64,000 nt of DNA from an uncultured Chloroflexia bacterium (GTDB taxonomy: Bacteria > Chloroflexota > Dehalococcoidia > GIF9 > AB-539-J10), in assembly GCA_963769975.1 (NCBI GenBank), contig CAVYNS010000003.1, forward strand, positions 384,434 to 448,433, in the 5' to 3' direction. Both the position numbers and the translations under genes were made by a program. Below are positions 13,195 through 64,000 of the stretch, piece after piece (within the stretch, counting starts at the first letter, position 1; every line of letters begins with the position of its first letter). The notes under the pieces are model-generated. The model searched no databases and had not been told where the DNA came from. It worked only from the letters and a program-made list of their open reading frames with translations.

Positions 13195-13275
13195 TTTTCC
13201 TCTCTTTCCCTACTCATAACGGCGGGTATAACGACCCTGCGACGAGCGAAAGAAAGATGCTCTTCATTTCAGGGA

Positions 13276-33161: not shown

Positions 33162-33467
33162 TTGGAGGGGCAGATGAAAGCAATAATAACGAGTATTATG
33201 GTAGCCATTGTACTAGCTTCAATCTTTTCCTTGCCGGCTCTAGCCCAAGAAAACAGTACCATCACCATCACTATGACAGGAGCCAATGAAATTTCCATTA
33301 GCCTGGATAAGACACAATGGCCTCTCGGGAACGTGGCTTCAAACACAGAATATGAGACAAGCCCGCCCATAGAGTGGTGCACACTGACCGTACAGGGCAA
33401 TTGTAATGTAAATACCTTTATTGTAGGGGATGATGCTAAATGGGATTGCGCTCACACAATAACATAG
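33162..33467 (+). CDS. small secreted protein (signal peptide); C-terminus DCAHTIT
   Basis: 101 aa; hydrophobic N-terminus ending ALAQE; its stop codon lies inside repeat copy A. Confidence 0.5.
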   Translation: MEGQMKAIITSIMVAIVLASIFSLPALAQENSTITITMTGANEISISLDKTQWPLGNVASNTEYETSPPIEWCTLTVQGNCNVNTFIVGDDAKWDCAHTIT

Positions 33468-33512
33468 AAATGCTACCATTCAGGGTGTGTGTTTGAGGTG
33501 ACAAGACAGGCG
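33444..33512. repeat. mosaic intergenic repeat family, copy A
   Basis: acaataacatagaa ... ttcagggtgtgtgtttgaggtgacaagacagg; shared with 35521-35660, 36378-36515 and 56585-56760. Confidence 0.6.
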
Positions 33513-33550
33513 GTTGTGCAATTTCACACTTCGCTATGCTATGGCTCTGG

Positions 33551-34972
33551 TTAAACAGTGACCTTTATCAGCCAGACATCATAGTCCCCGTACGAAGATG
33601 TGGAACCGGCAATGATGTATCCTCCATCTGAGGTTTGCTGGACTGAGTAGCCATAGTCGTCACCTGAACCGCCAAAGGTCTTGTTCCACGCCAAATTTCC
33701 TGAAGAATCGGCCTTTATCAGCCAGACATCCCCACCGCTATACCAGGACAACGCCGTGTAACCGGCAATGATGTAGCCTCCGTCCGAGGTTTGCTGGACT
33801 GAGTGGCCATAGTCACAAGATGAACCGCCAAAGGTCTGGTTCCACGCCAAATTTCCTGAAGAATCGGTCTTTATCAGCCAGACATCACTACAGCCAGCCC
33901 CGTAGGAATATGTGTTAGCGATAATGATGTATCCTCCGTCCGAGGTCTGCTGCACGGAGTCGCCTTCGTCATCCAGGGAACCGCCAAAGGTCTTGTTCCA
34001 CGTTTCATTTCCTGCAGAATCTGTCTTTATCAGCCAGACATCACGACTGCCAGCCCCGTAGGAATCTGTGCAACCGGCAATGATGTATCCTGCATCCGAG
34101 GTTTGCTGAACCGAGTACCCCTCGTCATAACCTGAACCGCCAAAGGTCTTGTTCCACGCCAGATTTCCTGAAGAATCCGTCTTCATCAGCCAGACGTCCC
34201 TATCGCCAGCCCCGTAGTATTGTGTGGAACCGGCAATGATGTATCCTCCATCCGAGGTTTGCTGAACTGAGTACCCCTCGTCATAACCTGAAGCGCCAAA
34301 GGTCTTGTTCCACGCCAGATTTCCTGAAGAATCCGTCTTCATCAGCCAGACATCTAAAACGCCACCCTCGTATGAATATGTGTAACCGATAATGATGTAT
34401 CCTCCGTCCGAGGTTTGCTGGACCGAGTAGCCATAGTCATAATCTGAACCGCCAAAGGTCTTGTTCCACGCCAAATTTCCTGAAGAATCTGTCTTTATCA
34501 GCCAGACATCAACATTGCCAGCGCCGTAGGAATCCGTGTAACCGGCGATGATGTATCCTCCGTCCGAGGTTTGCTGGACTGAGTAGCCCCGGTCAGTACC
34601 TGAACCGCCAAAGGTCTTGCTCCATGCTACTTCAGGATTATAATAGGTAGTAGCCCTGAAATTAGCGGCGATGTTCTTATCCGAGTCCATGGTAATGGCA
34701 ATACTGGATGTGTTGCCCGACGCACTACCAGTCCAGTGGTCAAAAGTATAACCACTAGCAGGGCTGGCTGTTAGTGTCACCTGTGCACCAGATTCATATT
34801 GGCCACCTGAAGGGGAGACCGAGCCTGCTCCTATGGGGTCAACGACTGTGGTAAGCTTGTAAGTCTCGGCAGAAGCTGGTCCCTCCCATGGTTTGAAAAC
34901 AAATAAGACTATCGCTACGATAATAGCTATGGTGCAACCTACGATGATTCCTGCCAGCTTTTTCTTACTCAT
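33551..34972 (-). CDS. membrane-anchored protein with an InlB-B-repeat-like domain and ~8 beta-propeller (SBBP-like) repeats
   Basis: 473 aa; N-terminal TM helix, [12 protein letters not shown] Ig-like segment, then ~48-aa tandem units ([28 protein letters not shown]). Confidence 0.7.
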
Positions 34973-35520: not shown

Positions 35521-35660
35521 GGGATTGTGGGGACACAATAACATAGAACTTTTGCCGTTCAGCGTGCGCGCTTAATGTCGCATAATCACAATACATCACT
35601 CCCAGTTCGTGTAATGAAATAACAAAACAGGCAATTGTTACCCGAACTGCACGAAATATC
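35521..35660. repeat. mosaic intergenic repeat family, copy B (includes a degenerate gene 3' end ...DCGDTIT*)
   Basis: gattgtggggacacaataacatagaacttttgccgttcag ... aataacaaaacaggcaattgttacccgaactg. Confidence 0.6.
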
Positions 35661-36125: not shown

Positions 36126-36377
36126 TTCTACCTCCTTATTCCAATGTTCGCAGCAAAATAATCCTAGGAACTCAAGTGTTGCTAAACAAGGTAAGTCTCT
36201 ATACGAAAATTAGCCGAATCTGTAAATTCGTAACACATACATTTGACTACGCACTTTGACATTAGTCTCTAAGGGCTACTTCTTATTTAAAATATTCTTA
36301 TAGAAATTACTATACAACTATTTAAGAGAAATTGTCAATAGTTTGTTCGTGGTTTCCAAAACATACTATGGAGTTAA

Positions 36378-36515
36378 GGAGTCACAAAACGCTGCTTTGT
36401 GCAGTGCGCCACAATCGGGATTGTGGGGACACAATAGCATAGAATTTTTGCCGTTCAGGGTGTGTGTTTGAGGTAACAAAACAGACTATTGTTGCCCGAG
36501 TTGAACAATACGTCA
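36378..36515. repeat. mosaic intergenic repeat family, copy C (with a 24-codon ORF ending ...DCGDTIA*)
   Basis: gtcacaaaacgctgctttgtgcag ... gattgtggggacacaatagcatagaatttttgccgttcagggtgtgtgtttgaggtaacaaaacagactattgttgcccgagttg. Confidence 0.6.
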
Positions 36516-36616: not shown

Positions 36617-37222
36617 TTACTCGGGCTCAGCAAACTGTTTAGCCGCATTATCCACAATGAGTTGTAAACTTTTCAGGTACTTATCGAACAGGTCGATTGC
36701 TGGCTCTTTGTCCCATGGCTCATCAACGAAATACATATGGTCAATAGTCGCAACTGTTGTAGATTCTCGCTTACGTTTTTTCCGGCGGAGCCGTCTCCTT
36801 ATCGTTCCAATTCGTTGTTTAAAGTATGCCAAAAAATCTTGACGTAAGTAACGTAGCTTACTTCTCCAAGAGCCTCGAATTACAGTAGCAGTCGCTGTAA
36901 CATGAACGCCTATAGATACGTGTGCTTTCATGGTGACGACCTTTCGCACAGAAATACTTTTTTCCTTTAAAACGAAGTTCCTTTGATTTAGGAAGAATTG
37001 TGCTAGTGGGTCTGCTCCTAGTGCGCTCTGTTGGCTCTCATACCATTCTTTGAAGCCGGGAGTGTTATTATATTGCTTTTGTAGCAGAAAGGTAACGCTT
37101 CTTGCCCATACAATAGCCGTTTCAAAAAAGTGGCTGAACTGGATTCGGTCTTGCATTTCAACTGCAACCGCTTTGTCGTAAAAGAAACGGACTTTGTTAA
37201 GACACTTCTGACCTTCAATCAT
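36617..37222 (-). CDS. hypothetical protein (201 aa, Arg/Lys-rich segment)
   Basis: ORF only. Confidence 0.4.
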   Translation of the reverse strand: MIEGQKCLNKVRFFYDKAVAVEMQDRIQFSHFFETAIVWARSVTFLLQKQYNNTPGFKEWYESQQSALGADPLAQFFLNQRNFVLKEKSISVRKVVTMKAHVSIGVHVTATATVIRGSWRSKLRYLRQDFLAYFKQRIGTIRRRLRRKKRKRESTTVATIDHMYFVDEPWDKEPAIDLFDKYLKSLQLIVDNAAKQFAEPE

Positions 37223-39349: not shown

Positions 39350-40249
39350 ATGGCAAGTAGCAACAGACTCAAGTGTTTAGTTACGAGCGACGAGGTAGCC
39401 TATATGAGCATATCGTCCAAATCATCATTAGAACTGGACGCAGCGAAGAGTCTCATGTGGTGGATAACACATGAGACTCTTGTTCCAATTGACAAGCCAG
39501 ATTGCAGCCAACCATCGAGGCCGGGAGGGAACCCTGATTTTATCTTCCAGGACTCGAGAAAGCGTAAGTATGTATTGGAAGTGACTCGGCTGCTAACTTC
39601 AAAGTTACGCAACCTCGAAAATACGGTAGCTGCCCAAGTTTGTGCTCCAGTAGAGTACCAAATTCCTGGTACCTACGGGTTGCATATCCACTTGACCGAT
39701 CCTCTTGGGCGGGGCAAGATCGCCCCCGAGGTTTTGAAGCAAACAGCGGAGGAAATATCTAGAATATTAAAAGATGGCACTTTGCAGGATACTCAACAAT
39801 TGAGCGCAGGGTTTATCCTTTGGAAGGCAAGGAGCGAAGGCAGTAAGCTAGTACCTTGGATTACCTCGCCGGAACTACCATTTGACCTAACTGATGCCCA
39901 TCCCATCGCCAAGGAACTGCGAAGTGTATTTGAGAAATTGATAGAGGAAGGTGATTTGAAGTTTCGAGGCTATGACCCGTACAGGCTCCTGCTTATTAAC
40001 ACTTCACAATCAGGATTGGACTTAAAATTCCATGCCGGAAGATTCAAGGATGGCAAAGGTATCTTGCTCACCTGGATGGATACTTTATGCCAGCGGATCC
40101 TCAACATCGATGCCATCTTCTTAGAACCCGGTATCAATGTCCGGTCAGCAGGAGGCAAAGTAATGGCAGGGCATAAATACGTTGAGAGCAAGTCTGGTCA
40201 CTACCTTGAGCTCTGGCATCGTAGTAGCGTTCCACCGCTTCTTATCTAG
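39350..40249 (+). CDS. hypothetical protein (299 aa)
   Basis: ORF only. Confidence 0.45.
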   Translation: MASSNRLKCLVTSDEVAYMSISSKSSLELDAAKSLMWWITHETLVPIDKPDCSQPSRPGGNPDFIFQDSRKRKYVLEVTRLLTSKLRNLENTVAAQVCAPVEYQIPGTYGLHIHLTDPLGRGKIAPEVLKQTAEEISRILKDGTLQDTQQLSAGFILWKARSEGSKLVPWITSPELPFDLTDAHPIAKELRSVFEKLIEEGDLKFRGYDPYRLLLINTSQSGLDLKFHAGRFKDGKGILLTWMDTLCQRILNIDAIFLEPGINVRSAGGKVMAGHKYVESKSGHYLELWHRSSVPPLLI

Positions 40250-40497
40250 CTGAATACTTTGGGACATCTAACAAATACTCATTATGTTGCCTTAACCCTT
40301 GCGGGGTATTGAACGAAATAGCGTTTTGTGACTGCTTAACCCTATGGCATCTTCTAAGCAAGGGTAGCAATAGCCCTGTGTTGTCAAAAATTCCTGCCAA
40401 GAGGGGAAAGCACGTGCTTTCCGAAAGCTGCTCCAGAGAAGCATGCTTTTTAGCTTAATGAAGCGCTTAAAAAGCAGCTGCTAATTTTATATTAGAT

Positions 40498-40875
40498 GAG
40501 CAGCTCGGGGTGAGCAGCTCGAAAGCAGCTTTTTTGAAGCCCTGATTACGAAGGGTCTCTTGGGGCAACTAGTCAAAACCCAGAAGCAGCTTCTGAATTT
40601 ACGTTTGGCCGAGCAGCTCGGAGCGCTGCTCGGAGCAGCTTTTTTGACCCCCTGATTACGAAGGCGTTATCTTAAGGCAACTAATCAAGGTTCGGAAGCA
40701 GCTCAAGATTTTACGTTGGCCGAGCAGCTCCGAGCAGCTGCTCAAGCAGCTTTTTTGAAGCCCTGATTACGAAGGCGCTATCTTAAGGCAACTAATCAAG
40801 GTCCGGAAGCAGCTCAAGATTTTACGTTGGCCGAGCAGCTCCGAGCAGCTCAAAAGCAGCTTTTTCTTGAGGAGA
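40498..40875. repeat. non-coding tandem repeat, 111-bp unit, ~3.4 copies
   Basis: Units start at 40498, 40611, 40722 and 40833; each contains gagcagctc(g/c)g ... agcagcttttttga(a/c)gccctgattacgaagg ... aaggcaactaatcaagg. Confidence 0.8.
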
Positions 40876-40985: not shown

Positions 40986-41516
40986 ATGAGGCTGCGGGTA
41001 AAAGCTAGGGCGTGGGCTCAAGCACACGCGGAGGGTAACATGGCCCAAGTATCAGTTACAATCGATGCTGTTAGACGTGGCACACTGCGGGATGTGTGGA
41101 CGCTACTACTAAAAGAGAAGGTAGCAGAAGGATACCCGTCAATTGGACTCTATTTTTTGCCAATCTGGATAAGCCCATCCCAGGCAGATATTATAATCGG
41201 TGAGCTCCTGCAGCGACCCGACAAGAGCACGACTCCTGATATCTTCCTGGCCAGTATCAACGCGATTGAGTCCAAGATTGAATGCGCCACAATTTATCTG
41301 GAGGGTGAGACGTTTTACGCCAGGCTGCAACTTTTTCATCACGATGAGGTTCGCGAAGTAAAATGTCCAATAGCCGTAGCGGTAGCCCTGGCGTCCAGGG
41401 CAGGAGCATCCACTTTGGTTGAAGAAGCAACATGGGACAAAGCTGCCCTGACGATAAATCGGGACTGGACATTGGGTGTTGGTAATGCTGTCCCAGCGAC
41501 CGGCAAAACTGGGTGA
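40986..41516 (+). CDS. DUF151-family bifunctional nuclease-like protein
   Basis: 176 aa; pattern LPIWIS ... EAxxI ... RP ... D ... ETFYARLQL ... VKCPIAVAVALA matches the BFN/DUF151 fold. Confidence 0.55.
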   Translation: MRLRVKARAWAQAHAEGNMAQVSVTIDAVRRGTLRDVWTLLLKEKVAEGYPSIGLYFLPIWISPSQADIIIGELLQRPDKSTTPDIFLASINAIESKIECATIYLEGETFYARLQLFHHDEVREVKCPIAVAVALASRAGASTLVEEATWDKAALTINRDWTLGVGNAVPATGKTG

Positions 41517-41722
41517 CGCTAGCGCTTGACCCTATATCGGCCCTACCAAAACAACCTCGGTGGAGACGGCTGCTCGGGAGACAGGGGTAAGCCTCGGACT
41601 GTCTTATCGCTAACGCCTTGCCACTTTTGTTGCGTAATGGTGCTTCAATCGGCACGGGAAGGTTAGTATTTCCGCTTTCAACCGTTATTCCTTTACCCTA
41701 GATAATTCAACAAAAGAATCAA

Positions 41723-41947
41723 TCAGGGTGCGCTTTTCCCATTGATTACGTCCCTCAGCTTTAGCCCGTTGGCCTTCAGGACCCCAAAGATATATGCCGG
41801 ACTGCAACCCAGCTCGGTGGCCGCCGCCACCACGTTACGGTGTGCCTTTAACGACTCACAAACGTTTTTGAATGGTATATTAAGCCGTCTGCGTCCTAAA
41901 CCATTCACCGTTACCATTCCCCCGCAGTGCGGACAAGTAACTTTCAC
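41723..41947 (-). CDS. small zinc-ribbon / HTH DNA-binding protein
   Basis: 74 aa; CPHCGG zinc ribbon followed by a helix-turn-helix-like segment. Confidence 0.45.
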   Translation of the reverse strand: MKVTCPHCGGMVTVNGLGRRRLNIPFKNVCESLKAHRNVVAAATELGCSPAYIFGVLKANGLKLRDVINGKSAP

Positions 41948-41974
41948 CCCGCTTTACTCTCCAAATTTTTTCTC

Positions 41975-42155
41975 TGACACTTTCGTGCCTACTGCGCATG
42001 GCTTTACGCACTGACACTTCACTGACAGTACTCTTGACACTTTACTGACACTTTCTGACACTTTCAAAGTGTCAGTGCGTGGGCTGACAATTGTCAGAGA
42101 ATTTTTTAGCTTCAATCCGTGCGTAAGTGTCAAAGTGTCAGAACTGTCAGTGTCT
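41975..42155. repeat. iteron array of the 9-mer TGACACTTT (at least 5 direct and 3 inverted copies)
   Basis: Direct copies at 41975, 42012, 42035, 42046 and 42055; inverted AAAGTGTCA copies at 42066, 42130 and 42139; a TGACAATTGTCA palindrome at 42086. Confidence 0.7.
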
Positions 42156-42165
42156 CTATACTTTT

Positions 42166-43416
42166 TCAAACCGCCTCGTATCTCCTGACTTGCCGTCCTC
42201 TATCCGTTTTCTGGTACGAGTTCTTGATTAGTCCAATCTTCGCAAGTGGCGCTACCAGGCTTTCGAGTTCCTTCGCTGATATTGAGAGCCGCCGGTAAAC
42301 TTCCCGCTCCGGGACCGACCCGCCCTCAGCCCGCAAAAATTCTAGTAATTTAATCTCTTGAGCCTTGCCACTTGACGTTCCGAAGCTGGCGAATACTTCA
42401 GTTACGCTCGCTTCTAGATAGTTCCCCACTGCAATCGCCGCTTCTAGGTGGTCTACTGATATACTCTCTGACATCGTGTCTGCCGCATAGAGTAAAGCTA
42501 TCTTCCAAATGAAGTCCTGAATCCTGACAATAAGCGTGGGTATCAATCCCGGTTGCTGACAGCGCCGGTAATATTCGTGGTAGTATTCCTCAAACAGTGT
42601 GCTTGCCTCGTCTGAGATGGTTATCTCACCGTTGGGCACGTCCTCAGCCCAGCTACGAATCTGATTCAACTCCCGAACTAGCTCATTGCGCTTGTCCAGG
42701 TCAACCTTTGGCGGATTCGGCATGGGGTCTTTTGGCAAGCCATAAAAGTAACACCAGCGATTTGCGAAGCCGCCGTATATGTCCCTCTCGGTGAGCGCCT
42801 TTTGTAGCCAATCCTGTGTCGTGCCCGCCATTATGGAGAGGAAAGGCTCTTTAGCTGGCTTCACGTCTTTTTGATGCACTGGCGGATTTAACAGGTCTGG
42901 AGAATCGTACAACTCGTTGAGCGCTGGGATAATGTTACCTAGCGAATCTTGTTTGGCCTTTGCCAGTAAAGATAGCAGCTCGCCAAGCTGTATGAGCCTG
43001 ACTTTCCGCTCTCCGGCCAGTTCATCCAGCAAGCCTTCATAGCTTCTGATTCCCCTAAGTGTTTTGAATGGCGGACTTGGGTCATCCTCTGAGTACGCGT
43101 GAAGCATGTCCAATACGCTGCGGCCCCTTGACCATGTGGTGTCTTTGCGTGTTAGCCCGCTTCTACCTACAAGGCAGTTAAAGAAGTTAGGGAATAGCCT
43201 TGTTGCGTGATACGTAAAAAGGCGCCTGCCGATGGTACACCCAAAGACTTGAAGAAACGTGGCATAGTGGAAGGCATCTGCCGCCTCGGTAGTATTTGCT
43301 ACCATATCTCGATAGTCTTTCAATAAGCCTCGCCATGCGATAGCGGGTATTTCCAGACTGGCCGGAGTAGTAATCGGCTTTGAGAGTGCCTTTTCCGTAA
43401 TTATTATCTCTGGCAT
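42166..43416 (-). CDS. primase-associated protein (DUF3987-like C-terminal domain family)
   Basis: 416 aa with no P-loop; overlaps the upstream primase gene by 13 nt; arrangement typical of integrative-element replication modules. Confidence 0.4.
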   Translation of the reverse strand: MPEIIITEKALSKPITTPASLEIPAIAWRGLLKDYRDMVANTTEAADAFHYATFLQVFGCTIGRRLFTYHATRLFPNFFNCLVGRSGLTRKDTTWSRGRSVLDMLHAYSEDDPSPPFKTLRGIRSYEGLLDELAGERKVRLIQLGELLSLLAKAKQDSLGNIIPALNELYDSPDLLNPPVHQKDVKPAKEPFLSIMAGTTQDWLQKALTERDIYGGFANRWCYFYGLPKDPMPNPPKVDLDKRNELVRELNQIRSWAEDVPNGEITISDEASTLFEEYYHEYYRRCQQPGLIPTLIVRIQDFIWKIALLYAADTMSESISVDHLEAAIAVGNYLEASVTEVFASFGTSSGKAQEIKLLEFLRAEGGSVPEREVYRRLSISAKELESLVAPLAKIGLIKNSYQKTDRGRQVRRYEAV

Positions 43417-44369
43417 AGCTGCCCCCCTGTCGCTAGTAAATCGTCCAACCCCTTAAACTCTGCGTTCCAATCAGCCTCAAAGGTGCGTATTCTACGCTTG
43501 ATTAGGCAAGCAATTAAGGCGTTCTTATGGAGATTGACAACAGGATAAGATAGCTTGTCCATGTCAAAGGCAACAATCGCCCTTGCTGGTGCGAGTTCAC
43601 GGACTATCGGTATAATGCCCGGCCAATTGCCAACACCAGGCACGGCCAAAACAACACGCTCCAGCCTCAGAGCGGCAATATCGGCTTTAATCGGCCCTTC
43701 GGTAATCCACATTTCGCTCTTAGTGGACACTGGCCCTGCTACATGTACCGGCGCTCCTGGAGAACAGCCGGCGAAGTAGCCGCGAGAGCTTAACCACCTA
43801 TAGCGGCTACCGTTCTCTGTGTTGTCACACCGGATTTGCAATCCTATAATACGGCGCTTAGTGTCCCTTACGGGTATCAGAATCCCGGCTGGGCCTGAGA
43901 GCCTAACTTCCTCAAACCCAAGCCAGAAGCCCGGGACGCCGATTAGCTTGAATCCCTTTGCTTTGAGACTTTGCACTACGCCGCGCCTCCCGTTTACCGG
44001 GAATGATTTGTACTCTAGTCTGAGAATCTCATCGTCCGTTAGTCCCCGGCGTTGTAAGTTTGTGCGGTGGGTATCTGATAGTGACAGTTCTACGAGCAGG
44101 GCGTGGTAAGCTCTGTCAAGCACGTCTGGCGCCGCTTTTGGTATTTGCTTTGCATCAGGTCTAGGCTTAGGTAGCGGTAATGACTTCATGGTGTCCAGTT
44201 TGTGTATCCAACCTGCACCTTTCTTGCCTGCGGGTTTATCACTCTCAATGCGAGCGCAGATAGCGGCTTCCCCATCCTGTGATATAAGACACCAATCAGG
44301 CTTACCGCATACCGGGCACAGGTTATGCTTGGTAACACGAATCCACTTGTTAGCCGTTGCCGTGGTCAT
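43404..44369 (-). CDS. zinc-ribbon + TOPRIM primase (P4-type/DnaG-like)
   Basis: 321 aa; CPVCGKPDWC ... AAIC zinc ribbon, then a TOPRIM with conserved E (ITEGP) and DxD (AFDMD). Confidence 0.6.
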   Translation of the reverse strand: MTTATANKWIRVTKHNLCPVCGKPDWCLISQDGEAAICARIESDKPAGKKGAGWIHKLDTMKSLPLPKPRPDAKQIPKAAPDVLDRAYHALLVELSLSDTHRTNLQRRGLTDDEILRLEYKSFPVNGRRGVVQSLKAKGFKLIGVPGFWLGFEEVRLSGPAGILIPVRDTKRRIIGLQIRCDNTENGSRYRWLSSRGYFAGCSPGAPVHVAGPVSTKSEMWITEGPIKADIAALRLERVVLAVPGVGNWPGIIPIVRELAPARAIVAFDMDKLSYPVVNLHKNALIACLIKRRIRTFEADWNAEFKGLDDLLATGGQLCQR

Positions 44370-44597
44370 TTCTTTCCCTCACTTTCAGCCTTCAATTCAC
44401 GCTGGCACTCAGCGATTAGACGTGAAAAGAACTTCCGCCACTGTTGCCACGCCAGCGGTGATGCTGGCGGCCCTGGCCGAATGCTCATAATGACCTTAAC
44501 TTCGGCCTTATCTCTTGTCTTCGTTGGCTGCTTCGCCATCATCTTTTCTTTTGAGAGGGCGTATAGTCAGTTCACCGTCTGCAATCATCTTGAAATC

Positions 44598-44804
44598 CTA
44601 TCTCTCCGAGTGAGGGATAACTTTTAGCAAATGGTCGGCAGTAATTGGAACCTTCTGTCCTGGTTTGATGTTGTGGGCATCAACGAACTCCCTGGGGAGA
44701 TTCAGGTAGTAGGAACCATTGATGCAAATCACCCGCCGATTCTCCGTAATGGGGTCATTCACTTTGTGTTTGACTCTGTTTTTCCTTAGGTTTACTTTTG
44801 ACAT
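44598..44804 (-). CDS. AbrB/MazE/SpoVT-family transcriptional regulator
   Basis: 68 aa; swapped-hairpin beta-barrel motif (VICINGSYYLNLPREFVD). Confidence 0.6.
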   Translation of the reverse strand: MSKVNLRKNRVKHKVNDPITENRRVICINGSYYLNLPREFVDAHNIKPGQKVPITADHLLKVIPHSER

Positions 44805-44876
44805 TTTAAAATTCTACCTCTAGAATTTTAGTATTGATTAAACAATATTGGGCCGATAATTCGGGAATAGTTAGAA

Positions 44877-45320
44877 ATGTGGCTGACCAGTCAGGAAGCA
44901 CTACGTAAGCTTCAACTAATGGGCGTGGGGAAAAAAGCCGCCGACTCGTTGTTAAGTGAAGATCAATTTAGGAACTGGATTGGGTCGGGCAAGGTGTGGT
45001 TTGAAATATGTGAAGGGCAAAAGAAATTTGATAGCGGACACATAGAAGAGGTGGGGAGTCGTTACATCAAGAGCAGTGGTCTGGCATATTCGATTTACCA
45101 CTTTGACAAGGATAGCGGACGGCGGCTTGAGTATATCAACAGCTATCAGTGTGGGGGGATGTGGTCTGTTAGCGACAGACAGGCTCAAAACATCATAGCG
45201 AGCGGCAAACCAGCTGCCTTCGGCTCCCCATTTTCAATCGTTCGGAAGATTGGCAGGGAGAATTTCGTGCTTCGAGAAGCAGCCGAAGACTATGCTAATA
45301 AAAGACGGGTTTTGGTGTGA
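44877..45320 (+). CDS. hypothetical protein (147 aa)
   Basis: ORF only. Confidence 0.4.
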   Translation: MWLTSQEALRKLQLMGVGKKAADSLLSEDQFRNWIGSGKVWFEICEGQKKFDSGHIEEVGSRYIKSSGLAYSIYHFDKDSGRRLEYINSYQCGGMWSVSDRQAQNIIASGKPAAFGSPFSIVRKIGRENFVLREAAEDYANKRRVLV

Positions 45321-45593: not shown

Positions 45594-48317
45594 GTGGTTG
45601 ACTACAGCATAGAGGTTTCAGTTACCGAGGGTACGACAAATACTGAGCGTGGAAACTTGTTAGTAGAGTTGATGCGCGATGTATTTGATGCGACTAACCA
45701 TACCAGTGGTCCGTCTATTAGGGTCACTGGTATGGAGATAGATACTACTGCTACTCATAATGTCACCGGCGAGAAGATATATGCCGAGTGCAAGGCTTAT
45801 AGAGAACCTATACCAGCAGATACTATTTCAAAACTATTGGGCAACGTTTTTCTTAAGAACGTAGACCAGGGATGGCTGGTAACTACATCTAAGCTTTCTA
45901 AGGACGCCGAGGGATCAAAGGAAGAGTGGGAGAAGAAACCTCCAGAAGAACGTCGTCGATTACAGGTCTACAATCCTCCTAGACTGCTAACTCTGTTAAT
46001 AGCTTCAAACCGTATCTTTGATCCAGCCAAGATAACAGCTACCTCAGGAACGGAGCAGGGTAACTGGTATTTTCTTCTGACTAATCTTGGTCGTTACTGG
46101 GCAAAGTTGGTAGTAGAGGCAGGCATACCGAGTAGAGTCATCGTCTATAATGCACAGACAGGCGTGTTAGTAAACGATGCGGAGCTTTTGAAAAAACTCA
46201 AACTGACTGACACTAGCCTCCGCGATTTCAATTGGCCAATTCCTTCTCCCAATGGTTCAGGGGTGGGAGAGTTGCTTGCCTACTTATCGGAAACGGTTGT
46301 TGATGTCGCGACTGGTGATACTTGGGCGGATTATCGTCCTGCCAGACCTCAAGACTTTGTGGGTCGGCATGATCTTCAAGATACTATGCGAGATTTATTT
46401 CTAGGTATTAGGAATAGAAGTACTAACACTCGTTTATTCTCAATAACTGGACCGTCGGGATGGGGTAAAAGTTCTTTAATTGCGAAACTACGGGACCGCT
46501 GTAGTAATAAGGCAAATCGTAAGAAATTTTACATGACTGCATTTGATATGAGAGCCGCCAAATCGTCAAACTATGTTTCCGCTGCTCTCCTAAGGTGTTT
46601 CTCGTCAGCGATCCAACGAAATTTTATTCTTCGGCCTGTTATGCCACTGCAAGTGGGAGCTCCCACAACGCCTCTTGAAAGTGAATCCTTACAAGATTGT
46701 TTACAACAGCTTAAAGATAAGAACAAAGTACTCATCTTAGTTTTTGATCAGTTTGAGGAGGTACTTACTAAACCCGAATTGAGGCAGCTATTTGATAGAC
46801 TTCGGTTACTCGCTTTGTCAGTGGATGCACAAAAAGAGAATCTTGTCCTTGGCTTTGCTTGGAAAAGCGATGCTTTTCTTCCACAAGATCACCCCGCGTA
46901 CTATCTTTGGCATCAACTCAAGGACAGACGTCTTGATCTGGCTGTGCCACGTTTTGGTTCAAAGGACGTCTCGCAAGCCCTAACACACTTCCAAACCGAA
47001 TTGGGACAACGCTTGAATCCTGTTTTACGCTCACAATTGGTACAGCATTGTCAAGGTTTTCCTTGGCTACTCAAAAAGCTGTGTATTCATGTTCTTAACC
47101 TCGTAAGACGTGATCTAAGTCAGCTGCAGGTGCTAGAGCGAGGACTAGATGTACGAGGACTGTTCGAAGCAGATTTAAGTGGGCTTTCCAGTAAGGAAAC
47201 ACTGTGCCTTAAAGAAATCGCGCGGTTGGCACCTGTTGAATGGGTACAAATTGTCGAACAATTCGGGAATGATACATACACTTCACTACTAGGTAAACTG
47301 TTGATAGTTCGTAGTGGCGACAGGCTGAACCCATATTGGGATATTTTCGGAGACTATCTGCGCACCAATGAAATCCCACATGTGCCTGTGTCTTTTCTGC
47401 CAGGAACTGAAATCCGAACTTTAGCAAGAGCAGCTGTTATTACTGTTATGAACAGGCCAGCAGGAGTCACATTAGAAAAACTGAGCACATCGCTGTCTAT
47501 AAATAGTAGGTCAGCAGGTAATGTTGTTCGAGATTTACAGATGTTTAGTCTTGCAGAGAGAAAAGGTGATCATATCGTTTCAACGATAGCTATCAAGGAG
47601 ACAAGAGATGCAGTCGCTGAGATCGCAAGACTAATCGCTCGCGCCTTAAATAACCACACCTTTACAATTATACTTCGTAGGAATGTAGCAAAGGGTTCAG
47701 AGATTACTGAACAGGATTTGCTTGGGTTCTTTAATGAGGCATTCCGGTATGCGTCACTCCGTGATGTCACAAAGAGAATGTACACACTCCGACTCGCCAA
47801 ATACTTGACGGCAACCCGCTTTCTCGAGCGTGTTCCTAGCGTATGGATACTCATTGATGAATTGACGGGACAGTTGATATTAATGCCAAGAGTTAGAGGT
47901 GCAGGTGAGTTTCTAGGAGATGCTCCTCCTGGAAGAGTTTTGGAGGTGCTGCAGAAGCTGTCGGAGTCTCCTGTGCCGAGAGCAGTCTTGAATAAGTCTC
48001 GTCTGAGGAACGCGACAGCATGTGCAATAATGCTGGAGCTCGCAAGCACACGTGATGGCATCGTTTACAGGCTAGAAGATACTAAGGACATGGAGGCTTC
48101 ACTAGTTGGAGCAGTAACCAACACTAGGTCTTTTAAGATAGTTTCAGAGCTTATCTGCAAATCTCCCAACATATCAGCAACGGAAATCGGTAAAACTCTG
48201 TCTGCCCACCTTGATTTGCCTTGGAGTGAGGCATCAAACCTTCGCCGTGGTAACGCGCTTCGTAGGTGGGTTCGGTGGTCGCAAAGTCAGACTTCCACAC
48301 GATCGGAGCCTGTATAG
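45594..48317 (+). CDS. STAND-type P-loop NTPase with an N-terminal Mrr-like PD-(D/E)xK nuclease domain (Avs-like antiviral STAND candidate)
   Basis: 907 aa; N-terminus GMEID ... EKIYAECKAY (D ... ExK); Walker A GPSGWGKSS; Walker B LILVFDQFEE; ~450-aa C-terminal helical region. Confidence 0.75.
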   Translation: MVDYSIEVSVTEGTTNTERGNLLVELMRDVFDATNHTSGPSIRVTGMEIDTTATHNVTGEKIYAECKAYREPIPADTISKLLGNVFLKNVDQGWLVTTSKLSKDAEGSKEEWEKKPPEERRRLQVYNPPRLLTLLIASNRIFDPAKITATSGTEQGNWYFLLTNLGRYWAKLVVEAGIPSRVIVYNAQTGVLVNDAELLKKLKLTDTSLRDFNWPIPSPNGSGVGELLAYLSETVVDVATGDTWADYRPARPQDFVGRHDLQDTMRDLFLGIRNRSTNTRLFSITGPSGWGKSSLIAKLRDRCSNKANRKKFYMTAFDMRAAKSSNYVSAALLRCFSSAIQRNFILRPVMPLQVGAPTTPLESESLQDCLQQLKDKNKVLILVFDQFEEVLTKPELRQLFDRLRLLALSVDAQKENLVLGFAWKSDAFLPQDHPAYYLWHQLKDRRLDLAVPRFGSKDVSQALTHFQTELGQRLNPVLRSQLVQHCQGFPWLLKKLCIHVLNLVRRDLSQLQVLERGLDVRGLFEADLSGLSSKETLCLKEIARLAPVEWVQIVEQFGNDTYTSLLGKLLIVRSGDRLNPYWDIFGDYLRTNEIPHVPVSFLPGTEIRTLARAAVITVMNRPAGVTLEKLSTSLSINSRSAGNVVRDLQMFSLAERKGDHIVSTIAIKETRDAVAEIARLIARALNNHTFTIILRRNVAKGSEITEQDLLGFFNEAFRYASLRDVTKRMYTLRLAKYLTATRFLERVPSVWILIDELTGQLILMPRVRGAGEFLGDAPPGRVLEVLQKLSESPVPRAVLNKSRLRNATACAIMLELASTRDGIVYRLEDTKDMEASLVGAVTNTRSFKIVSELICKSPNISATEIGKTLSAHLDLPWSEASNLRRGNALRRWVRWSQSQTSTRSEPV

Positions 48318-48454: not shown

Positions 48455-48500
48455 CGAATTGTTACGCTAGAGGTAACAAAACAGGCTTTTGTGACTTTAA
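48455..48500. repeat. mosaic intergenic repeat family, partial copy E
   Basis: ttgttacgctagaggtaacaaaacaggcttttgtgac matches the 3' module of copies B and C. Confidence 0.45.
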
Positions 48501-48567: not shown

Positions 48568-49329
48568 ATGGCACGAGAAACTTGGCATCAACCAACTATG
48601 GTAGAGAAGCGTGAAACCAGTATTAATGGGCAAACCATCACATATACAGTCAAGCGAAGCCTTAGGGCAAGGCATGTTCGGCTCGAGGTGAGACGGCAAA
48701 CGGGGCTTACGGTAGTTGTTCCTCACTCTTACAAGATTGGGCAACTCCCTAGACTTCTAGAATCGAAGGAACGATGGATCTCAAGTAGCTTGGCAAGATG
48801 TAGCAATTTCCAATCGCCTTATGCCGAGAAGGAACTCGGGAGTGGCGATACTGTCCCCTATCTTGGCCGAGACTTGAAGCTAGTCAAGCGGGAAAACCAC
48901 AGTGAAGTTGATAGTGTAACGCTAGAGGGAGATACACTGGCAGTGAGTCACGGATTATTTAAAAATGGTATCTTGGAGTTGGCTTTGGAACAGTGGTATC
49001 GGGCGGAGGCTGCTAGGCTGATAAACGAGAGAGCAGATAGGCTGAGTTCTCAGATGGGCATTCACTGCAAACGAATTGTCATACGAGGTCAAAAGACTCG
49101 CTGGGGCAGCTGCTCTCATAAGAAAAATCTTAGCTTTAACTGGAAACTAATAATGGCGCCAGAGCCTGTGATCGACTATGTTGTTATCCATGAACTTGCC
49201 CATCTGAAAGAGATGAATCATTCAAAGAGGTTCTGGGAATTGGTAGCTCAACACTGTCACAGATGGCGGGAGTATAAGAAGTGGCTCAGGCAACACGAGG
49301 CAAACCTTACTGCGAAACTCTGTCCCTAG
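48568..49329 (+). CDS. DUF45/YgjP-family metal-dependent hydrolase (WLM/SprT-like HExxH)
   Basis: 253 aa; HELAHLKEMNH zinc-binding motif. Confidence 0.75.
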   Translation: MARETWHQPTMVEKRETSINGQTITYTVKRSLRARHVRLEVRRQTGLTVVVPHSYKIGQLPRLLESKERWISSSLARCSNFQSPYAEKELGSGDTVPYLGRDLKLVKRENHSEVDSVTLEGDTLAVSHGLFKNGILELALEQWYRAEAARLINERADRLSSQMGIHCKRIVIRGQKTRWGSCSHKKNLSFNWKLIMAPEPVIDYVVIHELAHLKEMNHSKRFWELVAQHCHRWREYKKWLRQHEANLTAKLCP

Positions 49330-49431: not shown

Positions 49432-50517
49432 CTACAGGTCAAACTCTGTCCAGACCGCTCCGTGATCCGACGCTGATGCGGTGATGCCGTTGTCCTGCAC
49501 TTCCGGCCAAGCAATTACTTCCCCGTTGGAGTACTTTGCAACATCAAAAATACCTCTGCGTTCGACTCCGGCCTGTCTGCACGCATTCTGGAGCGGTTCC
49601 GAGACAAGAATGAAATCAAGCTGCTGATTCACATCGTAATGGTATGTCCATCTGTCCTCAGGTTTTGCGATTTTCAGCGCCAGTACATCTTTTAGCTCTC
49701 TCACATTCATCAGCGGCGATAGTGACTTGCTGTCAGGCGCCGCGTTGAAATCTCCGAGTACCACGACTTTGTCTCTCGTCAGGTCATGATTCCGCTCTCT
49801 AATAATGTCACCCACCCGTTGTGCTTGACGCAGTCTTTTGGCATCGTTTTGCTCCTGTGAGCCGTATCCTTGACTCTTGAAATGATTGACGAAAAGGTAC
49901 AGGAAATCGTTGTCTGGGAGCTTGATTGTGACTTCAAGACAGTCGCGAGAGAAAATGCGTGAACGTCCAACTTTCTCAAACATGTGGGTCCTGATATCGC
50001 ACATCTCGAAGCGAGAAAGGAGCGAGACATCAATTCCACGGGGATCAAATGCGTCAATCAGCATACTGTACGGATACCTCTTTCTAATGAATTGAGAATT
50101 GAATATATCAAGGGTGGGTTTGCTCTCTACCTCAATCACGCTGATGATGTCCGCGCTCACAGAGTTGATGACTTTCGCAGTGTTCTTTCTTGTGATTTCG
50201 GTGAAGTCGTCGGCTTTGAATGCGATGAAGCCACCCCAGTCATCCCTGCCTTTCGCTTTTACGCCGACGACGTTGAACTTCCGGTCACGCTTGAATAGTT
50301 TCTGGCGCACTTCATTTATGTCGATGAAATCCTTTAGTTCTTCATAGAGACCAAGAATCTTCTTGCCATCGTAGGCCTTCTTCTCCAACTCCACTTGTAG
50401 TTGGTCAACTTTGGCGAGTATTTCATCCCCATCTCTCCGCTCTTCAAAATTAAAGACTTTTGCGCGGCGAAATAAGTTCTCCGCATTGAACGTCGCAATC
50501 TTTAGAGTGTCACGCAT
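49432..50517 (-). CDS. endonuclease/exonuclease/phosphatase (EEP) family protein
   Basis: 361 aa; N-terminus KIATFNAENLF; motifs VLGDFNA and SDHGAVWTEF. Confidence 0.75.
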   Translation of the reverse strand: MRDTLKIATFNAENLFRRAKVFNFEERRDGDEILAKVDQLQVELEKKAYDGKKILGLYEELKDFIDINEVRQKLFKRDRKFNVVGVKAKGRDDWGGFIAFKADDFTEITRKNTAKVINSVSADIISVIEVESKPTLDIFNSQFIRKRYPYSMLIDAFDPRGIDVSLLSRFEMCDIRTHMFEKVGRSRIFSRDCLEVTIKLPDNDFLYLFVNHFKSQGYGSQEQNDAKRLRQAQRVGDIIRERNHDLTRDKVVVLGDFNAAPDSKSLSPLMNVRELKDVLALKIAKPEDRWTYHYDVNQQLDFILVSEPLQNACRQAGVERRGIFDVAKYSNGEVIAWPEVQDNGITASASDHGAVWTEFDL

Positions 50518-50636: not shown

Positions 50637-51569
50637 CTAGATATTGTTCGCGTTTCCTTGGAATATTTGCTTTCTACAAATCAAGGTGACGTCTCGGACT
50701 AGGCCTAAAGTTCTGGGAATTCGCTCTATTATAGTTGGTATTGCCTGAACGATTCCGAGTCCTTGAGTATAATCTTGTGGCTCCAGAAAACCTCCTGGAT
50801 ATCGTGTATAACTCTCGTGAGGGAAGGTTAACACTCCAAAGATATAACACTGACCTGCTGCCTGACCAAATTTCACCGAGGAATAGGTAACAATTGATTC
50901 TTTGTACTCAGGTAGGTATTCTGCAAAAACGGTTTTGACTTCATTTTCCTTCTGCTCTAATAATGGATGTGTTGTGAAGAGTGCGTCAGCAACTCTGATC
51001 AGTCCCTCTATGCCGAGTACACGGGGGGACGAGTTCATGGGCAGCTTGGCTAGCCGCTGTTGATCACTGTTAACTAGTTTCTTCACTTGGGTGATGGCTG
51101 TCTTGTAGTCTCGGTTATCAAGTGAGTTCAGTATACTCATCATCTCGTTGCCGGGCTTTTCTTCAATGATCTTCAATAGAGGTTGTGGAGTTCGATGAGT
51201 TGTGAGCAGTTCCTTAATGGTTACATCACCAATCGATAAGCAGAAAGCTTTCATGGCCTTTTCAATTGCTTGCTGGATGTGATAAACGCTCAGAGCAAGT
51301 TCCCCATGTTGAAAGAGTAAATTTGCCGCCCTATGATCTGCTTCTCCAGCGCCTAGGTATTTATCAGCAATGTCCAAAGAAGACGAATCTCGCCTTATCA
51401 CGACATGCTTGAGGGCACGCTTTACGAGTACTTCTGTTCGGAGCGAGTCTATCTGGTTAGCTTTCGGCATCAACTTCTTGATACCCGGCTTAACCCTAAG
51501 CCATAGCGTCTCGATTAGTTCATTTCCATTTTCGTTTGCCATTTGGTCGCCCGGAATGAATAACATCAT
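50637..51569 (-). CDS. hypothetical protein (310 aa)
   Basis: ORF only; follows the EEP gene on the same strand. Confidence 0.45.
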   Translation of the reverse strand: MMLFIPGDQMANENGNELIETLWLRVKPGIKKLMPKANQIDSLRTEVLVKRALKHVVIRRDSSSLDIADKYLGAGEADHRAANLLFQHGELALSVYHIQQAIEKAMKAFCLSIGDVTIKELLTTHRTPQPLLKIIEEKPGNEMMSILNSLDNRDYKTAITQVKKLVNSDQQRLAKLPMNSSPRVLGIEGLIRVADALFTTHPLLEQKENEVKTVFAEYLPEYKESIVTYSSVKFGQAAGQCYIFGVLTFPHESYTRYPGGFLEPQDYTQGLGIVQAIPTIIERIPRTLGLVRDVTLICRKQIFQGNANNI

Positions 51570-56584: not shown

Positions 56585-56760
56585 ATTTGCCGTTCACTCC
56601 CGGTTCATGTTGCTGTGTTTACATGGTCACAATAACACTCAGTTTTTGTCTTCAGGGTGTGTGTCTGACTACGCTGTTAATACCTTTTGTTGCTTTGTGG
56701 TTACAGGTATCAAGTCAAAGCAAGAAGTCACAAAACGCTAAAAAGTGCAATCAGATATAA
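56585..56760. repeat. mosaic intergenic repeat family, copy D (rearranged)
   Basis: tttgccgttcac ... ggtcacaataacactcagtttttgtcttcagggtgtgtgtctgac ... gtcacaaaacgctaaaaagtgcaatc. Confidence 0.55.
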
Positions 56761-56910: not shown

Positions 56911-57980
56911 GTGAGAATTCTCGATCAGGAGGGAAATACCGTGACGGATAGGAAAACAGACAACTTAGAGGATACACTTAGAATGGTACAGGAGGTCTTG
57001 ACAGCTAACAGAAAAGACCTCCGCTCACTGCTCTACAAAGACATTATCCTGAATTCGCTGAAGTGCAAACGAGATGAGCTTGATATTCTTGATCTCAAGG
57101 TCATCAATCGGGCAGTGGCCGAGTTCCGACATGCCGCGTGTGTCTTCAAACCGTACAGGATGGTTCGTAAAGTGTCCATGTTTGGTTCCGCTCGAGTAAC
57201 CAGGCACAGCCCCGACTATGAGCTAGCGCGCAGACTCGGCCGTTTGCTAGTTGAAAAAGGGTTCATGGTAATCACTGGAGCTGCAGAAGGTATCATGAGG
57301 GCGGAATTGAAGGTGCCGGCGCTGAAAACAGTTTTGGAGCTAACATCCTGCTCCCAATTGAAAGGGGGCCTACCAGTATAATTCGAGATGATCCAAAGGT
57401 GGTTCGGTTTAAATATTTTTTCACGCGCAAAATATTCTTTGTAATGGAAGCTGATGCTATTGCGCTATTCCCTGGGGGCTTTGGCACGCATGATGAAGGA
57501 TTTGAAGTGTTAACGTTGCTACAGACAGGTAAAGCACCGCCAATGCCTGTAGTGCTTATGGAATTGCCAGGGGAACAGTACTGGGAAACTTGGGATCAAT
57601 TTATAAGGCAGCAGTTGCTAACCCGGCGCTTTATCTCCCCGGAGGACCTTTCCCTTTACAAGATCATCCATTCTCCCGAGGAGGCGGTAGAATGGATTAG
57701 GTCATACTACGCAACCTACCATTCAACACGCCAAGTACGAGACCAGCTTGTCATCAGGCTAGAGAAAGAGCTTCTGGGCAGTCATATTAGGAAACTAAAC
57801 GAGTCTTTTCAGGACCTCGTTGAGTCTGGGGAAATTGCCAAAACACCCGCTCTAAAAGAGGAAGAAGACGAACCGAACCTCTCATTAAAACCCAGAATTG
57901 CTTTTGCGTACAACAAAAAAAGTGCTGGGCGCCTTAATCAGATGATATTAATGATAAACCAACTGGGCCAAACAATTTGA
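56911..57980 (+). pseudogene. LOG-family (TIGR00730-type) Rossmann nucleotide-binding protein, split by a 1-nt frameshift
   Basis: ORF1 (56911-57381) carries FGSARV ... VITGAAEGIM. The other frame, open from 57255 (track ORF 57399-57980), continues GGIEGAGAENSFGANILLP ... ADAIALFPGGFGT. The frames switch near 57295-57300. Confidence 0.6.
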
Positions 57981-60292: not shown

Positions 60293-61324
60293 TCACCTAG
60301 CCTCAATGGCTGGGAGCAAATCCTCTAGACCTCGTTGGTAGTTTGTCCTGAAATCTGCGTACCGCTTATCCGCAATGAGAGGTGGAATGTCACAATCAGC
60401 AATCAGAACTGGCAGGACTACTACATTCCTTGTTTGTAGTTCACGCATTAAGCCAGCACTCAGCTCTTTCTCAACCCAAGACGATTTTACTGAATTAGGC
60501 GATAGAATGAGTATGAGGTAGTCGTTCCTATTAATACTTTCGTTGATCTTCTTCGCAATAGAGTCGCCAACCTTTATTTCCCAACGATCCCACCATACTT
60601 GCTTCCCTGAGTTATTCAGGTCGTTCACGAGGCGTTCTACAAACTCAGCATCCTTACTTGAATAGCTGATGAAAGCGCTGGGTATTGTCTTGTCCTTTTT
60701 TAACACTGGCTTACGATTCTTCCTATAGGCAGACAGTTCCGCTTCTACCACAGGAATGATTTCAGCTGGCATGGTCCAATCTGGGTATTTATTACTGCCG
60801 GTTTTAAAGATCAGTTTTAGAGTGCGGAATCTTGGTAGCAAATAGGATGGGACAAATTCATAACCGAGCGCTGATTCAATGGCATCAAGAAGCTCGAAAT
60901 ATTCACTTCTTCCGCCTTTATCGATAATTCCTCGCAAGACACCGTAGGCTTTGTCTCCCCAGCGACTGAGCGCCTTTTGCACGTTCGCACGTACAGCATC
61001 CCAGGAACTTTCGACCTTCAGTCGACCACTTTCATCGCAAGTGTAATAATTTCCCTGGAATCCACCGAGGTCAAGGCCATACTTTGGCGGTTTCTTCATT
61101 ATGAGTTTGACCAGCGTTTCGTCAGAAATCACTTCTGCAATAGCTAAGGCCGCCTTTAACCTAGAATCATCCCCATATCCAATGTCCCAGTAATTCGCGA
61201 ATTTCTCAAAATAAGGAATACGCAGGATCTTACCTACATTATAGAGGTCCTCCAGCCAATAAAGGCGCATCAATAATAAGGCTCTTTCTTTTGTCCTTGC
61301 ATCCGTCAGTTCGTTAGATGGCAT
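60293..61324 (-). CDS. TIR-domain protein (unknown ~200-aa N-terminal domain + C-terminal TIR)
   Basis: 343 aa; the C-terminus FISYSSKDAEFVERLVNDL ... WWDRWEIKVGDSI ... ILSPNSVKSSWVEKEL matches TIR core motifs, including the catalytic-region Glu. Confidence 0.75.
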   Translation of the reverse strand: MPSNELTDARTKERALLLMRLYWLEDLYNVGKILRIPYFEKFANYWDIGYGDDSRLKAALAIAEVISDETLVKLIMKKPPKYGLDLGGFQGNYYTCDESGRLKVESSWDAVRANVQKALSRWGDKAYGVLRGIIDKGGRSEYFELLDAIESALGYEFVPSYLLPRFRTLKLIFKTGSNKYPDWTMPAEIIPVVEAELSAYRKNRKPVLKKDKTIPSAFISYSSKDAEFVERLVNDLNNSGKQVWWDRWEIKVGDSIAKKINESINRNDYLILILSPNSVKSSWVEKELSAGLMRELQTRNVVVLPVLIADCDIPPLIADKRYADFRTNYQRGLEDLLPAIEAR

Positions 61325-63660: not shown

Positions 63661-63666
63661 GAGATC

Positions 63667-64000
63667 TCCTTAGGCGGCGAACTGATCCACAGGAACATAG
63701 TCCTTGACATATTCAGGAACCAGCGTACGGTACTTCTCCGGAACGGCACGGAAGTCGCGTGTGGAGAACATGGCATTGGTGGCCAGATCGGTGAAATTAC
63801 GGCTCTCTATAATGTGACGTACCTGATCGCTGGTGATGTAGGCTTTGAAGTAGGTCTTGATAGCTGGGATAGCCTCGACCATCTCCGGTTTGGTATCGGC
63901 GATGAATTTGACGAACTCTTCTTCGAGCAGTTCATCTTTGGACTTGAAGCGTGGGATGAAACCGAAGATCTTTTCGAGCATTTCACGCAGTGTTAGGCGG
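63667..64000 (-). CDS. hsdR: C-terminal end of an upstream gene, probably the type I restriction R subunit (HsdR); truncated by the window edge
   Basis: The reading frame is open to the window boundary; it ends 7 nt before the hsdM start; the tail sequence is compatible with an HsdR C-terminal domain. Confidence 0.4.

Follow-up and report, generated by a model that had tools for sequence, protein, structure and literature searches.

A probable replication core of an integrative island family of Chloroflexota, in a copy without its flanking recombinases

Overview of the Region

The DNA considered here is a stretch of 64,000 nucleotides (nt), called the window, from the assembly of an uncultured Chloroflexia bacterium (GCA_963769975.1, contig CAVYNS010000003.1), and the element in question lies at positions 41723-44804, where genes for a regulator, a primase and a DUF3987 helicase are followed by an array of short repeats (iterons) and a gene for a small protein with a zinc ribbon (Zn-ribbon) and a helix-turn-helix (HTH). 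This region is likely to be the regulation and replication core of a family of integrative, self-replicating islands of Chloroflexota, found mostly in metagenome-assembled genomes of Dehalococcoidia type, of which this copy has lost the flanking recombinases. The copy is probably a recombinase-less derivative, immobile or dependent on functions supplied in trans, within a mosaic region rich in defence genes. Nine independent close relatives, with primases 64–76% identical, retain the same core, and in all nine a tyrosine and/or large serine recombinase lies within 10 kb in the DNA retrieved, while in the window recombinases are missing without remnant. The features of the core and its borders are as follows (aa, amino acids).

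41642-41722, no strand: conserved non-coding stretch of 81 nt at the place where relatives carry a short recombinase, matched by blastn to locus L198
41723-41947, minus strand: 74-aa Zn-ribbon and HTH protein, in relatives the first gene of the recombination module
41973-42152, no strand: iteron origin, between the helicase and Zn-ribbon/HTH genes
42166-43416, minus strand: DUF3987 MCM-like (superfamily 6, SF6) AAA+ helicase of 416 aa with a C-terminal winged helix, the proposed self-loading initiator
43404-44369, minus strand: DnaG-type primase of 321 aa with an N-terminal Cys4 zinc-binding domain and an RNA-polymerase/TOPRIM domain
44366-44542, minus strand: conserved basic 58-aa protein, translationally coupled to the primase start by an ATGA overlap
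44598-44804, minus strand: small regulator of 68 aa resembling AbrB/MazE (SpoVT-AbrB fold), a weaker call; first gene of the operon
44805-44876, no strand: putative divergent control region of 72 bp separating the operon from the 147-aa gene
44877-45320, plus strand: 147-aa gene, divergent from the operon

All genes of 41723-44804 are encoded on the minus strand and are read in the order 68-aa regulator, 58-aa protein, 321-aa primase and 416-aa helicase, then 220 bp of non-coding DNA and the 74-aa Zn-ribbon/HTH gene. The 58-aa and 321-aa frames overlap by 4 nt and the 321-aa and 416-aa frames by 13 nt, and these genes therefore form one translationally coupled operon. The primase, the DUF3987 gene, the iterons and the Zn-ribbon/HTH gene had been reported in an earlier note on this DNA, and all are present exactly where it placed them; the 58-aa gene was not listed there.

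Relatives of the Core

Homologues of the primase number 662; the best 120, at 49–77% identity, derive for the most part from metagenomes of sediment and groundwater. Named sources among these 120 are few, and all are Dehalococcoidia or Chloroflexota. Three close primase loci are found in species-representative genomes, together with many distant ones from Acidobacteriota, Planctomycetota and Firmicutes. The common plan of the relatives was drawn from the gene tables of the close loci and from a search of all loci with the recombinases of the relatives. Upstream of the core, and divergent from it, lie a gene for a protein of 223–370 aa and, beyond it, an integrase of the tyrosine or large serine type, which in two relatives adjoins tRNA-Met or tRNA-Val. 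The core itself consists of an HTH_17 or AbrB-like regulator, a small protein, the primase, the helicase, the iterons and the Zn-ribbon/HTH gene; on its 3' side follow a tyrosine recombinase of 225–226 aa (a 181-aa resolvase in L081) and then cargo, which includes bacteriophage exclusion (BREX) and restriction-modification systems, reverse transcriptases and other defence genes. A recombinase lies less than 5 kb from the core in all close relatives except L076, where the only one seen is about 9 kb away, at the end of the locus.

The core of the window is identical and fully intact in three other metagenome assemblies. The earlier description of an integrative or plasmid-like element stands in part: the family is integrative, while "plasmid-like" is true solely insofar as an excised circle would replicate itself, the plasmid collection having given no match. 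A plasmid origin was rejected on this account, a tblastn search of 72,556 plasmids with the helicase being without a match, and the phage matches to the helicase are confined to DUF3987 proteins of 21–25% identity.

Absence of Recombinases and the Zn-Ribbon/HTH Gene

In agreement with the earlier note, neither a tyrosine or serine recombinase nor a tRNA is present in the window. Pfam recombinase domains are absent from about 66 non-nested open reading frames (ORFs), the few nested or overlapping ORFs of at least 110 aa being covered by tblastn and a six-frame hidden Markov model (HMM) search only. When eight recombinase or neighbour proteins from the relatives were compared with the window by tblastn, no remnant was found (best E 0.099), and the six-frame HMM search for the short tyrosine recombinase was likewise negative (best E 0.58). 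ARAGORN found no tRNA in the window, and fragments of tRNA-derived attachment (att) sites are limited there to chance matches of 8–18 nt. Upstream of the operon, the integrase slot holds the unrelated 147-aa gene, which has no family match and no homologue among the relatives of the module, and a gene for a 907-aa Mrr-nuclease/STAND NTPase. On the 3' side of the Zn-ribbon/HTH gene there are 207 bp and then a convergent gene with a bifunctional-nuclease (BFN) domain.

The Zn-ribbon/HTH protein has 194 homologues, the nearest 91–93% identical, in which C5 and C8 of a CxxC motif are invariant and precede an HTH-like stretch. In relatives this gene is followed, with an overlap, by the tyrosine recombinase of 225–226 aa, and in some of them by a large serine recombinase. 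At loci L193-L197, a copy 83% identical to that of the window is preceded by an 802-aa DUF3854 fusion and followed by a 225-aa tyrosine recombinase, a 57-aa gene and a 496-aa large serine recombinase, and the recombination module sits at the edge of the element, directly against chromosomal dnaE. From this gene order it follows that the Zn-ribbon/HTH gene heads the recombination module. Two variants of the protein occur: that of the window is the 74-aa variant ending in GKSAP, whereas the end of the 86–88-aa variant overlaps the start of the recombinase.

The short variant is also found at L198, a diverged relative (helicase 77% and Zn-ribbon/HTH 84% identical), whose single blastn match to the window covers 288 nt at 87% identity, namely the Zn-ribbon/HTH gene and 81 nt 3' of its stop codon, up to the end of the L198 contig. 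Within L198, at 607-1553, the winged helix of the helicase and the whole iteron array are deleted, so that a truncated helicase gene abuts the Zn-ribbon/HTH gene. At L077, the short recombinase is cut down to its first 59 codons. Loss of parts is therefore common in the family, and the copy in the window is one such derivative. The degenerate element proposed by the earlier note is accordingly the best supported of its suggestions.

Primase

The product of 43404-44369 is recognised by its conserved residues and modelled fold as the DnaG-type primase of a mobile element, and primer synthesis is its predicted activity. It scores 25.2 bits against Pfam DUF3854, just over the cutoff of 23, and the family profile gives a weak sequence match to E. 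coli DnaG (E 0.05), while a model built from 49 homologues has a mean predicted local distance difference test (pLDDT) score of 89. The defining traits of DnaG-type primases are found in it: a four-ligand N-terminal zinc-binding domain and an RNA-polymerase-domain fold with the TOPRIM glutamate and DxD motif. The four cysteines, the glutamate E224 and the DxD residues D269 and D271 are invariant. With its last residue, 321, directly following the TOPRIM domain, the protein has no C-terminal DnaB-binding domain such as that of cellular DnaG, and it is therefore classed as a DnaG-type primase of mobile elements rather than as an orthologue of dnaG.

The N-terminal zinc-binding domain (residues ~7–80, window 44130-44350, motif VCGKPDWC) also occurs apart from the rest of the primase, combined there with other modules; it is seen in this form in many genomes of Planctomycetota and in viral contigs of IMG/VR (loci L026-L065 and L083-L105). 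As a mobile domain, it is not confined to this primase family. A viral kinship of the primase as a whole was considered and rejected, since the IMG/VR contigs share only the zinc-binding N-terminus or give partial matches of 25–33% identity over at most 274 of the 321 residues.

Helicase

The 416-aa protein is, as judged from its sequence and predicted fold, an MCM-like replicative helicase. It matches Pfam DUF3987 (PF13148) with 30.8 bits against a cutoff of 27, and among the primase/helicase families of PHROG the best match is phrog_14296 (E 6e-27). The residues expected of an MCM-type AAA+ fold, namely the Walker A lysine, the Walker B glutamate and arginines, are conserved: K91 of the P-loop, E146 of Walker B and the arginines R220 and R298 do not vary, not even in phage DUF3987 proteins at 23–27% identity. 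It has been reported that the DUF3987 family comprises replicative helicases related to MCM, in which a winged HTH forms the C-terminus and whose gene usually stands just after that of a primase of the DnaG or archaeo-eukaryotic primase (AEP) type (PMC4889955), and that one DUF3987 protein, AgaPH, is a demonstrated ATP-dependent helicase that binds its primase (PMC11724360). The primase partners of the helicase are exchangeable, because close homologues at 58–77% identity are fused to Prim-Pol and PriCT_1 or to a DnaB N-terminal domain.

Iteron Origin

Between the helicase and Zn-ribbon/HTH genes, 12 copies of TGACA/TGTCA lie in 41975-42149, where 0.46 would be expected (Poisson P 1e-13); elsewhere in the window, sampled every 50 nt with the array excluded, there are at most 3 per 200 nt. 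Read in the orientation of the genes, the origin begins with three direct TGACA copies at 42149, 42140 and 42132 and an AT-rich centre at 42098-42114, followed by the palindrome CTGACAATTGTCAG at 42084-42097 and a single TGACA at 42074; five inverted TGTCA copies spaced by 10–12 bp then extend from 42060 to 42016, and a final TGTCA at 41979 is followed by an A-run. This architecture is kept in 9 independent relatives. At L072, nearly all copies read CGACA/TGTCG, one TGTCA being left, and by virtue of this concerted switch the array behaves as a co-evolving binding site and not as coding sequence. The ORF at 41954-42169 (71 aa) was accordingly rejected as a gene, its length varying from 37 to 71 aa among relatives and its sequence tracking the CGACA switch of L072; it is the iteron array translated, nothing more.

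The origins of Staphylococcus aureus pathogenicity islands (SaPIs) have 6–12 penta- or hexanucleotide iterons directly after rep, with an AT-rich centre between opposed sets, and these iterons are read by the winged helix of a self-loading Rep helicase (PMC9371898). Since the layout found here is the one described for SaPI origins, we infer by analogy that the helicase is the initiator and that its winged helix reads the iterons. The Zn-ribbon/HTH protein is unlikely to be the reader, because its copies in L072 and L077 are 88% identical although the iterons of the two loci differ. In the recognition-helix region of the L072 helicase, the substitutions K382A, Y374H and E385Q accompany the iteron switch, a covariation of iteron and winged helix that is suggestive only.

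Proposed Mechanism and Small Genes of the Operon

In the proposed mechanism, the C-terminal winged helix of the helicase would read the TGACA iterons, and helicase hexamers would load themselves at both flanks of the AT-rich centre and separate its strands. Primers made by the primase would then serve the host polymerase, by which an excised circular copy could replicate. The AbrB-like protein, or HTH_17 in most relatives, may control the operon from the 72-bp divergent region.

The AbrB-type regulator named in the earlier note is present as a gene, and its family assignment is weak: the product of 44598-44804 matches Pfam MazE_antitoxin with E 4e-4 and 20.6 bits, below the gathering cutoff of 24.7, and shows 35% identity over 31 aa to a MazE-annotated gene at the equivalent position in L077. 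In most relatives, the regulator slot is filled by an HTH_17 (excisionase/MerR-like) gene rather than an AbrB-like one. A sigma-70-like site, TTGACA-17-TAGAAT, lies on the plus strand at 44798-44826. The 58-aa protein is 43–50% identical to the products of 50–54-aa genes just 5' of the primase in L077 and L073 and 29% identical in L075, and searches of Pfam, PHROG, NCBIfam and PADLOC gave no family match for it; NCBIfam and PADLOC were equally without new matches for the rest of the module and for the hypothetical genes near it.

Chromosomal Location and Variable Region

Up to 33.4 kb, the window carries ordinary chromosomal DNA, with genes for thiolases, a Mur ligase, ClpB, DnaJ, a tRNA synthetase, EngA, an aminotransferase and a 2-hydroxyacyl-CoA dehydratase. 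In 80 metagenome loci, whose flanking activase gene is 80–94% identical, gene order is conserved as far as the gene 33162-33467; more than 25 of them have usable downstream DNA, and in these the homologue of this gene is followed by three genes, none of which is present in the window. Homology to the relatives ends at 33444/5, inside 33162-33467, a small gene with a signal peptide that has 101 aa here and about 190 aa (~90 codons more) in dozens of relatives; L143 has the same truncation.

33442-33517, plus strand: left edge of the variable region and first copy of a repeat of ~76 nt, at the synteny break with more than 25 relatives

From 33445 to beyond 64 kb, the DNA is strain-variable and rich in defence genes. 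It contains a repeat-rich secreted protein, small hypothetical genes, the replication core, Mrr-STAND, YgjP, EEP nuclease and HEPN genes, a MacB-type ABC transporter, SLOG/LOG proteins, a TIR protein, a type I methylase and the tail of hsdR, and its G+C content ranges from 0.42 to 0.56. The module is absent at this locus in the more than 25 relatives, and its homologues elsewhere stand beside integrases and tRNAs; it is therefore not a conserved chromosomal operon, the situation in which, according to the earlier note, the reading as a mobile element would fall. A comparative search for an empty site, also proposed there, yielded relatives free of the module, but no clean empty site or right boundary, none of the relatives joining the left flank to the right-hand genes of the window.

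The left edge carries a direct repeat of ~76–117 nt with copies at 33442-33517, 35521-35638 and 36376-36492 and partial copies at 48470-48492, 56651-56668 and 56722-56739, in which a 6-bp hairpin, ATTGTG-N4-CACAAT, is found. L143 shares the junction and the repeat (11268-11345 and 13150-13235), with different DNA between the copies. Among the primase-element relatives the repeat was not found, and Rfam gave no family match anywhere in the window. The reading of these repeats as integron cassettes was rejected, as their single-strand folds are no better than those of shuffled sequences (z -1.3 to +1.1) and no integrase is present. The repeat could be a recombination site (junction or att-like), a cassette boundary or a dispersed repeat, and its internal copies argue for a mosaic region. 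The earlier note named no obvious att sites; tRNA fragments are indeed absent, but the ~76-nt direct repeats, which could be att-like, had been overlooked.

Alternative Explanations

The ordinary recombinases that flank the core in relatives suffice to explain the copy in the window, and no new integration machinery is needed. It is unlikely, nevertheless worth weighing, that the DNA from 33445 to beyond 64 kb is one large, complete island of conventional kind, with its recombinase and the rest of the truncated gene further downstream. Synteny does stop at 33445, the window lacks the genes found next in relatives, and defence genes (TIR, hsdM and the C-terminus of hsdR) reach the window edge; the nearest possible recombinase would, however, be more than 19 kb from the core, against less than 5 kb in all close relatives but L076 (~9 kb), and the several internal copies of the junction repeat, together with the range of G+C, point to a mosaic. 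The earlier note had also suggested a novel recombinase among the hypothetical genes, for instance 36617-37222 or 39350-40249. Several genes in 35–41 kb do lack any family assignment, yet profile searches of the hypothetical proteins of the window were negative for recombinases, these two genes matched nothing, recombinases included, in Pfam, NCBIfam, PADLOC, PHROG or PDB sequence searches, and no homologue of such genes accompanies the module in any relative; as tyrosine and serine recombinases of ordinary type are demonstrably in use in the family, movement by an unrecognised enzyme is very improbable. An assembly artefact, in which a small plasmid or circle was wrongly joined into a chromosomal contig, deserves hardly any credence: two contigs from other samples do end within the helicase gene, just before the iterons, but the independent contig L068 spans the 147-aa gene, the whole module and the BFN-domain gene, L066 and L067 carry the Mrr-STAND, YgjP and EEP genes joined to the module exactly as in the window, and the plasmid collection contains no match.

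The interpretation as a core that has lost its recombinases also has several points to reckon with. The intact core, identical in three assemblies, fits a recent loss and equally a still-active element with an unseen recombinase. The sequence without an integrase on the 3' side of the Zn-ribbon/HTH gene is common to the diverged lineage L198, and this junction may therefore be an established variant rather than a one-off deletion. The P-loop of the helicase is atypical, reading GRSGLTRKD without the GK[ST] signature, yet it is fixed across the clade. The covariation of iterons and winged helix comes from one locus, L072, and L069 has equally many unique C-terminal residues with TGACA unchanged. 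Every function assigned here is based on sequence and predicted folds. Some of these points bear on a replicon that is intact because it is maintained, either firing in place on induction and so amplifying the defence genes, or existing as a satellite excised in trans by the recombinase of a related island, for which the chance appears slim. All catalytic or invariant residues and all iterons are intact, the downstream junction is 87% conserved in the diverged lineage, and the neighbours are the defence genes Mrr-STAND, YgjP, EEP nuclease and HEPN, as such a replicon would have them; intactness is equally expected after a recent deletion, though, and in L198, the lineage with the same junction, the helicase is broken and the iterons are missing, a state that resembles decay and not selection.

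Comparison with Known Systems

The closest likeness in layout is to the pri-rep-ori segment of SaPIs and other phage-inducible chromosomal islands (PICIs) of S. aureus. The order of primase, helicase-initiator and origin is the same; iterons in two sets of opposite direction, with AT-rich DNA between them, follow directly after the helicase ORF, a winged helix forms the C-terminus of the helicase, and the replicon belongs to an integrative island that replicates after excision (PMC9371898). The core described here differs in that its helicase has no sequence-level similarity to the solved Rep structures and is nearest in fold to MCM, SaPI Reps belonging to a different branch of AAA+ helicases; its primase is of DnaG type, genes for packaging or capsid redirection are absent, and this copy is without an integrase. 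With the DUF3987 and primase systems of AgaPP-AgaPH and of the phages PaP2 and ReqiDocB7, it shares the Pfam family, the conserved Lys, Glu and Arg and a primase immediately upstream, but the primase here is a separate gene of DnaG type and not an AEP PrimPol, and identity to the phage proteins is 23–27%. The Cch/CCPol system of the staphylococcal cassette chromosome mec (SCCmec) differs in primase type, and similarity to it is far below that to MCM proteins; we know of no iteron origin of this layout described for it.

Tycheposons combine an integrase (tyrosine, less often large serine), primase and helicase genes and cargo at tRNAs, a make-up shared by the relatives of the module, and together with similar elements they form tandem or mosaic islands (bioRxiv 10.1101/2020.12.28.424599). 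They differ in host phylum and protein families, and the copy in the window lacks the integrase that defines them. CyRepA, the initiators of cyanobacterial plasmids, are fusions of DUF3854 and a helicase, and a DUF3854/TOPRIM-like domain is thus present in a replication initiator there as well (PMC10079941); the 802-aa DUF3854 fusion that precedes the Zn-ribbon/HTH-recombinase module in L193-L197 is a further likeness. In contrast to CyRepA, the DUF3854 protein here is a primase on its own, equipped with a zinc-binding domain, and its partner helicase belongs to the MCM-like DUF3987 family instead of the DEXDc type.

With this assignment, two DUF genes of uncultured Chloroflexota become a recognisable candidate replicon, comprising a DnaG-type primase, an MCM-like helicase that may load itself and an iteron origin. 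A layout of SaPI style would thus recur in a distant phylum with different protein families, and the Chloroflexota version combines interchangeable primases, regulators and recombinases with defence cargo. To our knowledge, genetic vectors for Dehalococcoidia are currently lacking, and replicon tools for this group could be developed from the conserved origin and its naturally occurring switch of specificity between TGACA and CGACA.

Other Features of the Window

The defence genes of the variable region encode the 907-aa Mrr-nuclease and STAND NTPase (45594-48317), a YgjP metallopeptidase (48568-49329), an EEP nuclease (49432-50517), a HEPN protein (50637-51569), a SLOG/LOG pair (56911-57980) and a TIR protein (60293-61324); at 61681-64000, a type I-like methylase is preceded by an hsdR-like C-terminal end, the gene running off the end of the window. 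The first gene within the variable region, 33551-34972, encodes a 473-aa secreted protein with an InlB B-repeat-like domain followed by 6.7 tandem repeats of 156 nt (52 aa).

Just upstream of the BFN-domain gene (40986-41516), the motif AGCAGCT occurs 18 times in 40426-40861 (P~2e-36), within a tandem repeat of 111 bp with 3.2 units at 40512-40865. This array is absent from the relatives of the module and could be a second protein-binding array, centromere-like or an operator. Amid the housekeeping DNA on the left, an AAA_15/AbiEii-like ATPase gene at 9905-11776 (623 aa) and a following 288-aa gene without a family match may be a small separate defence insertion.

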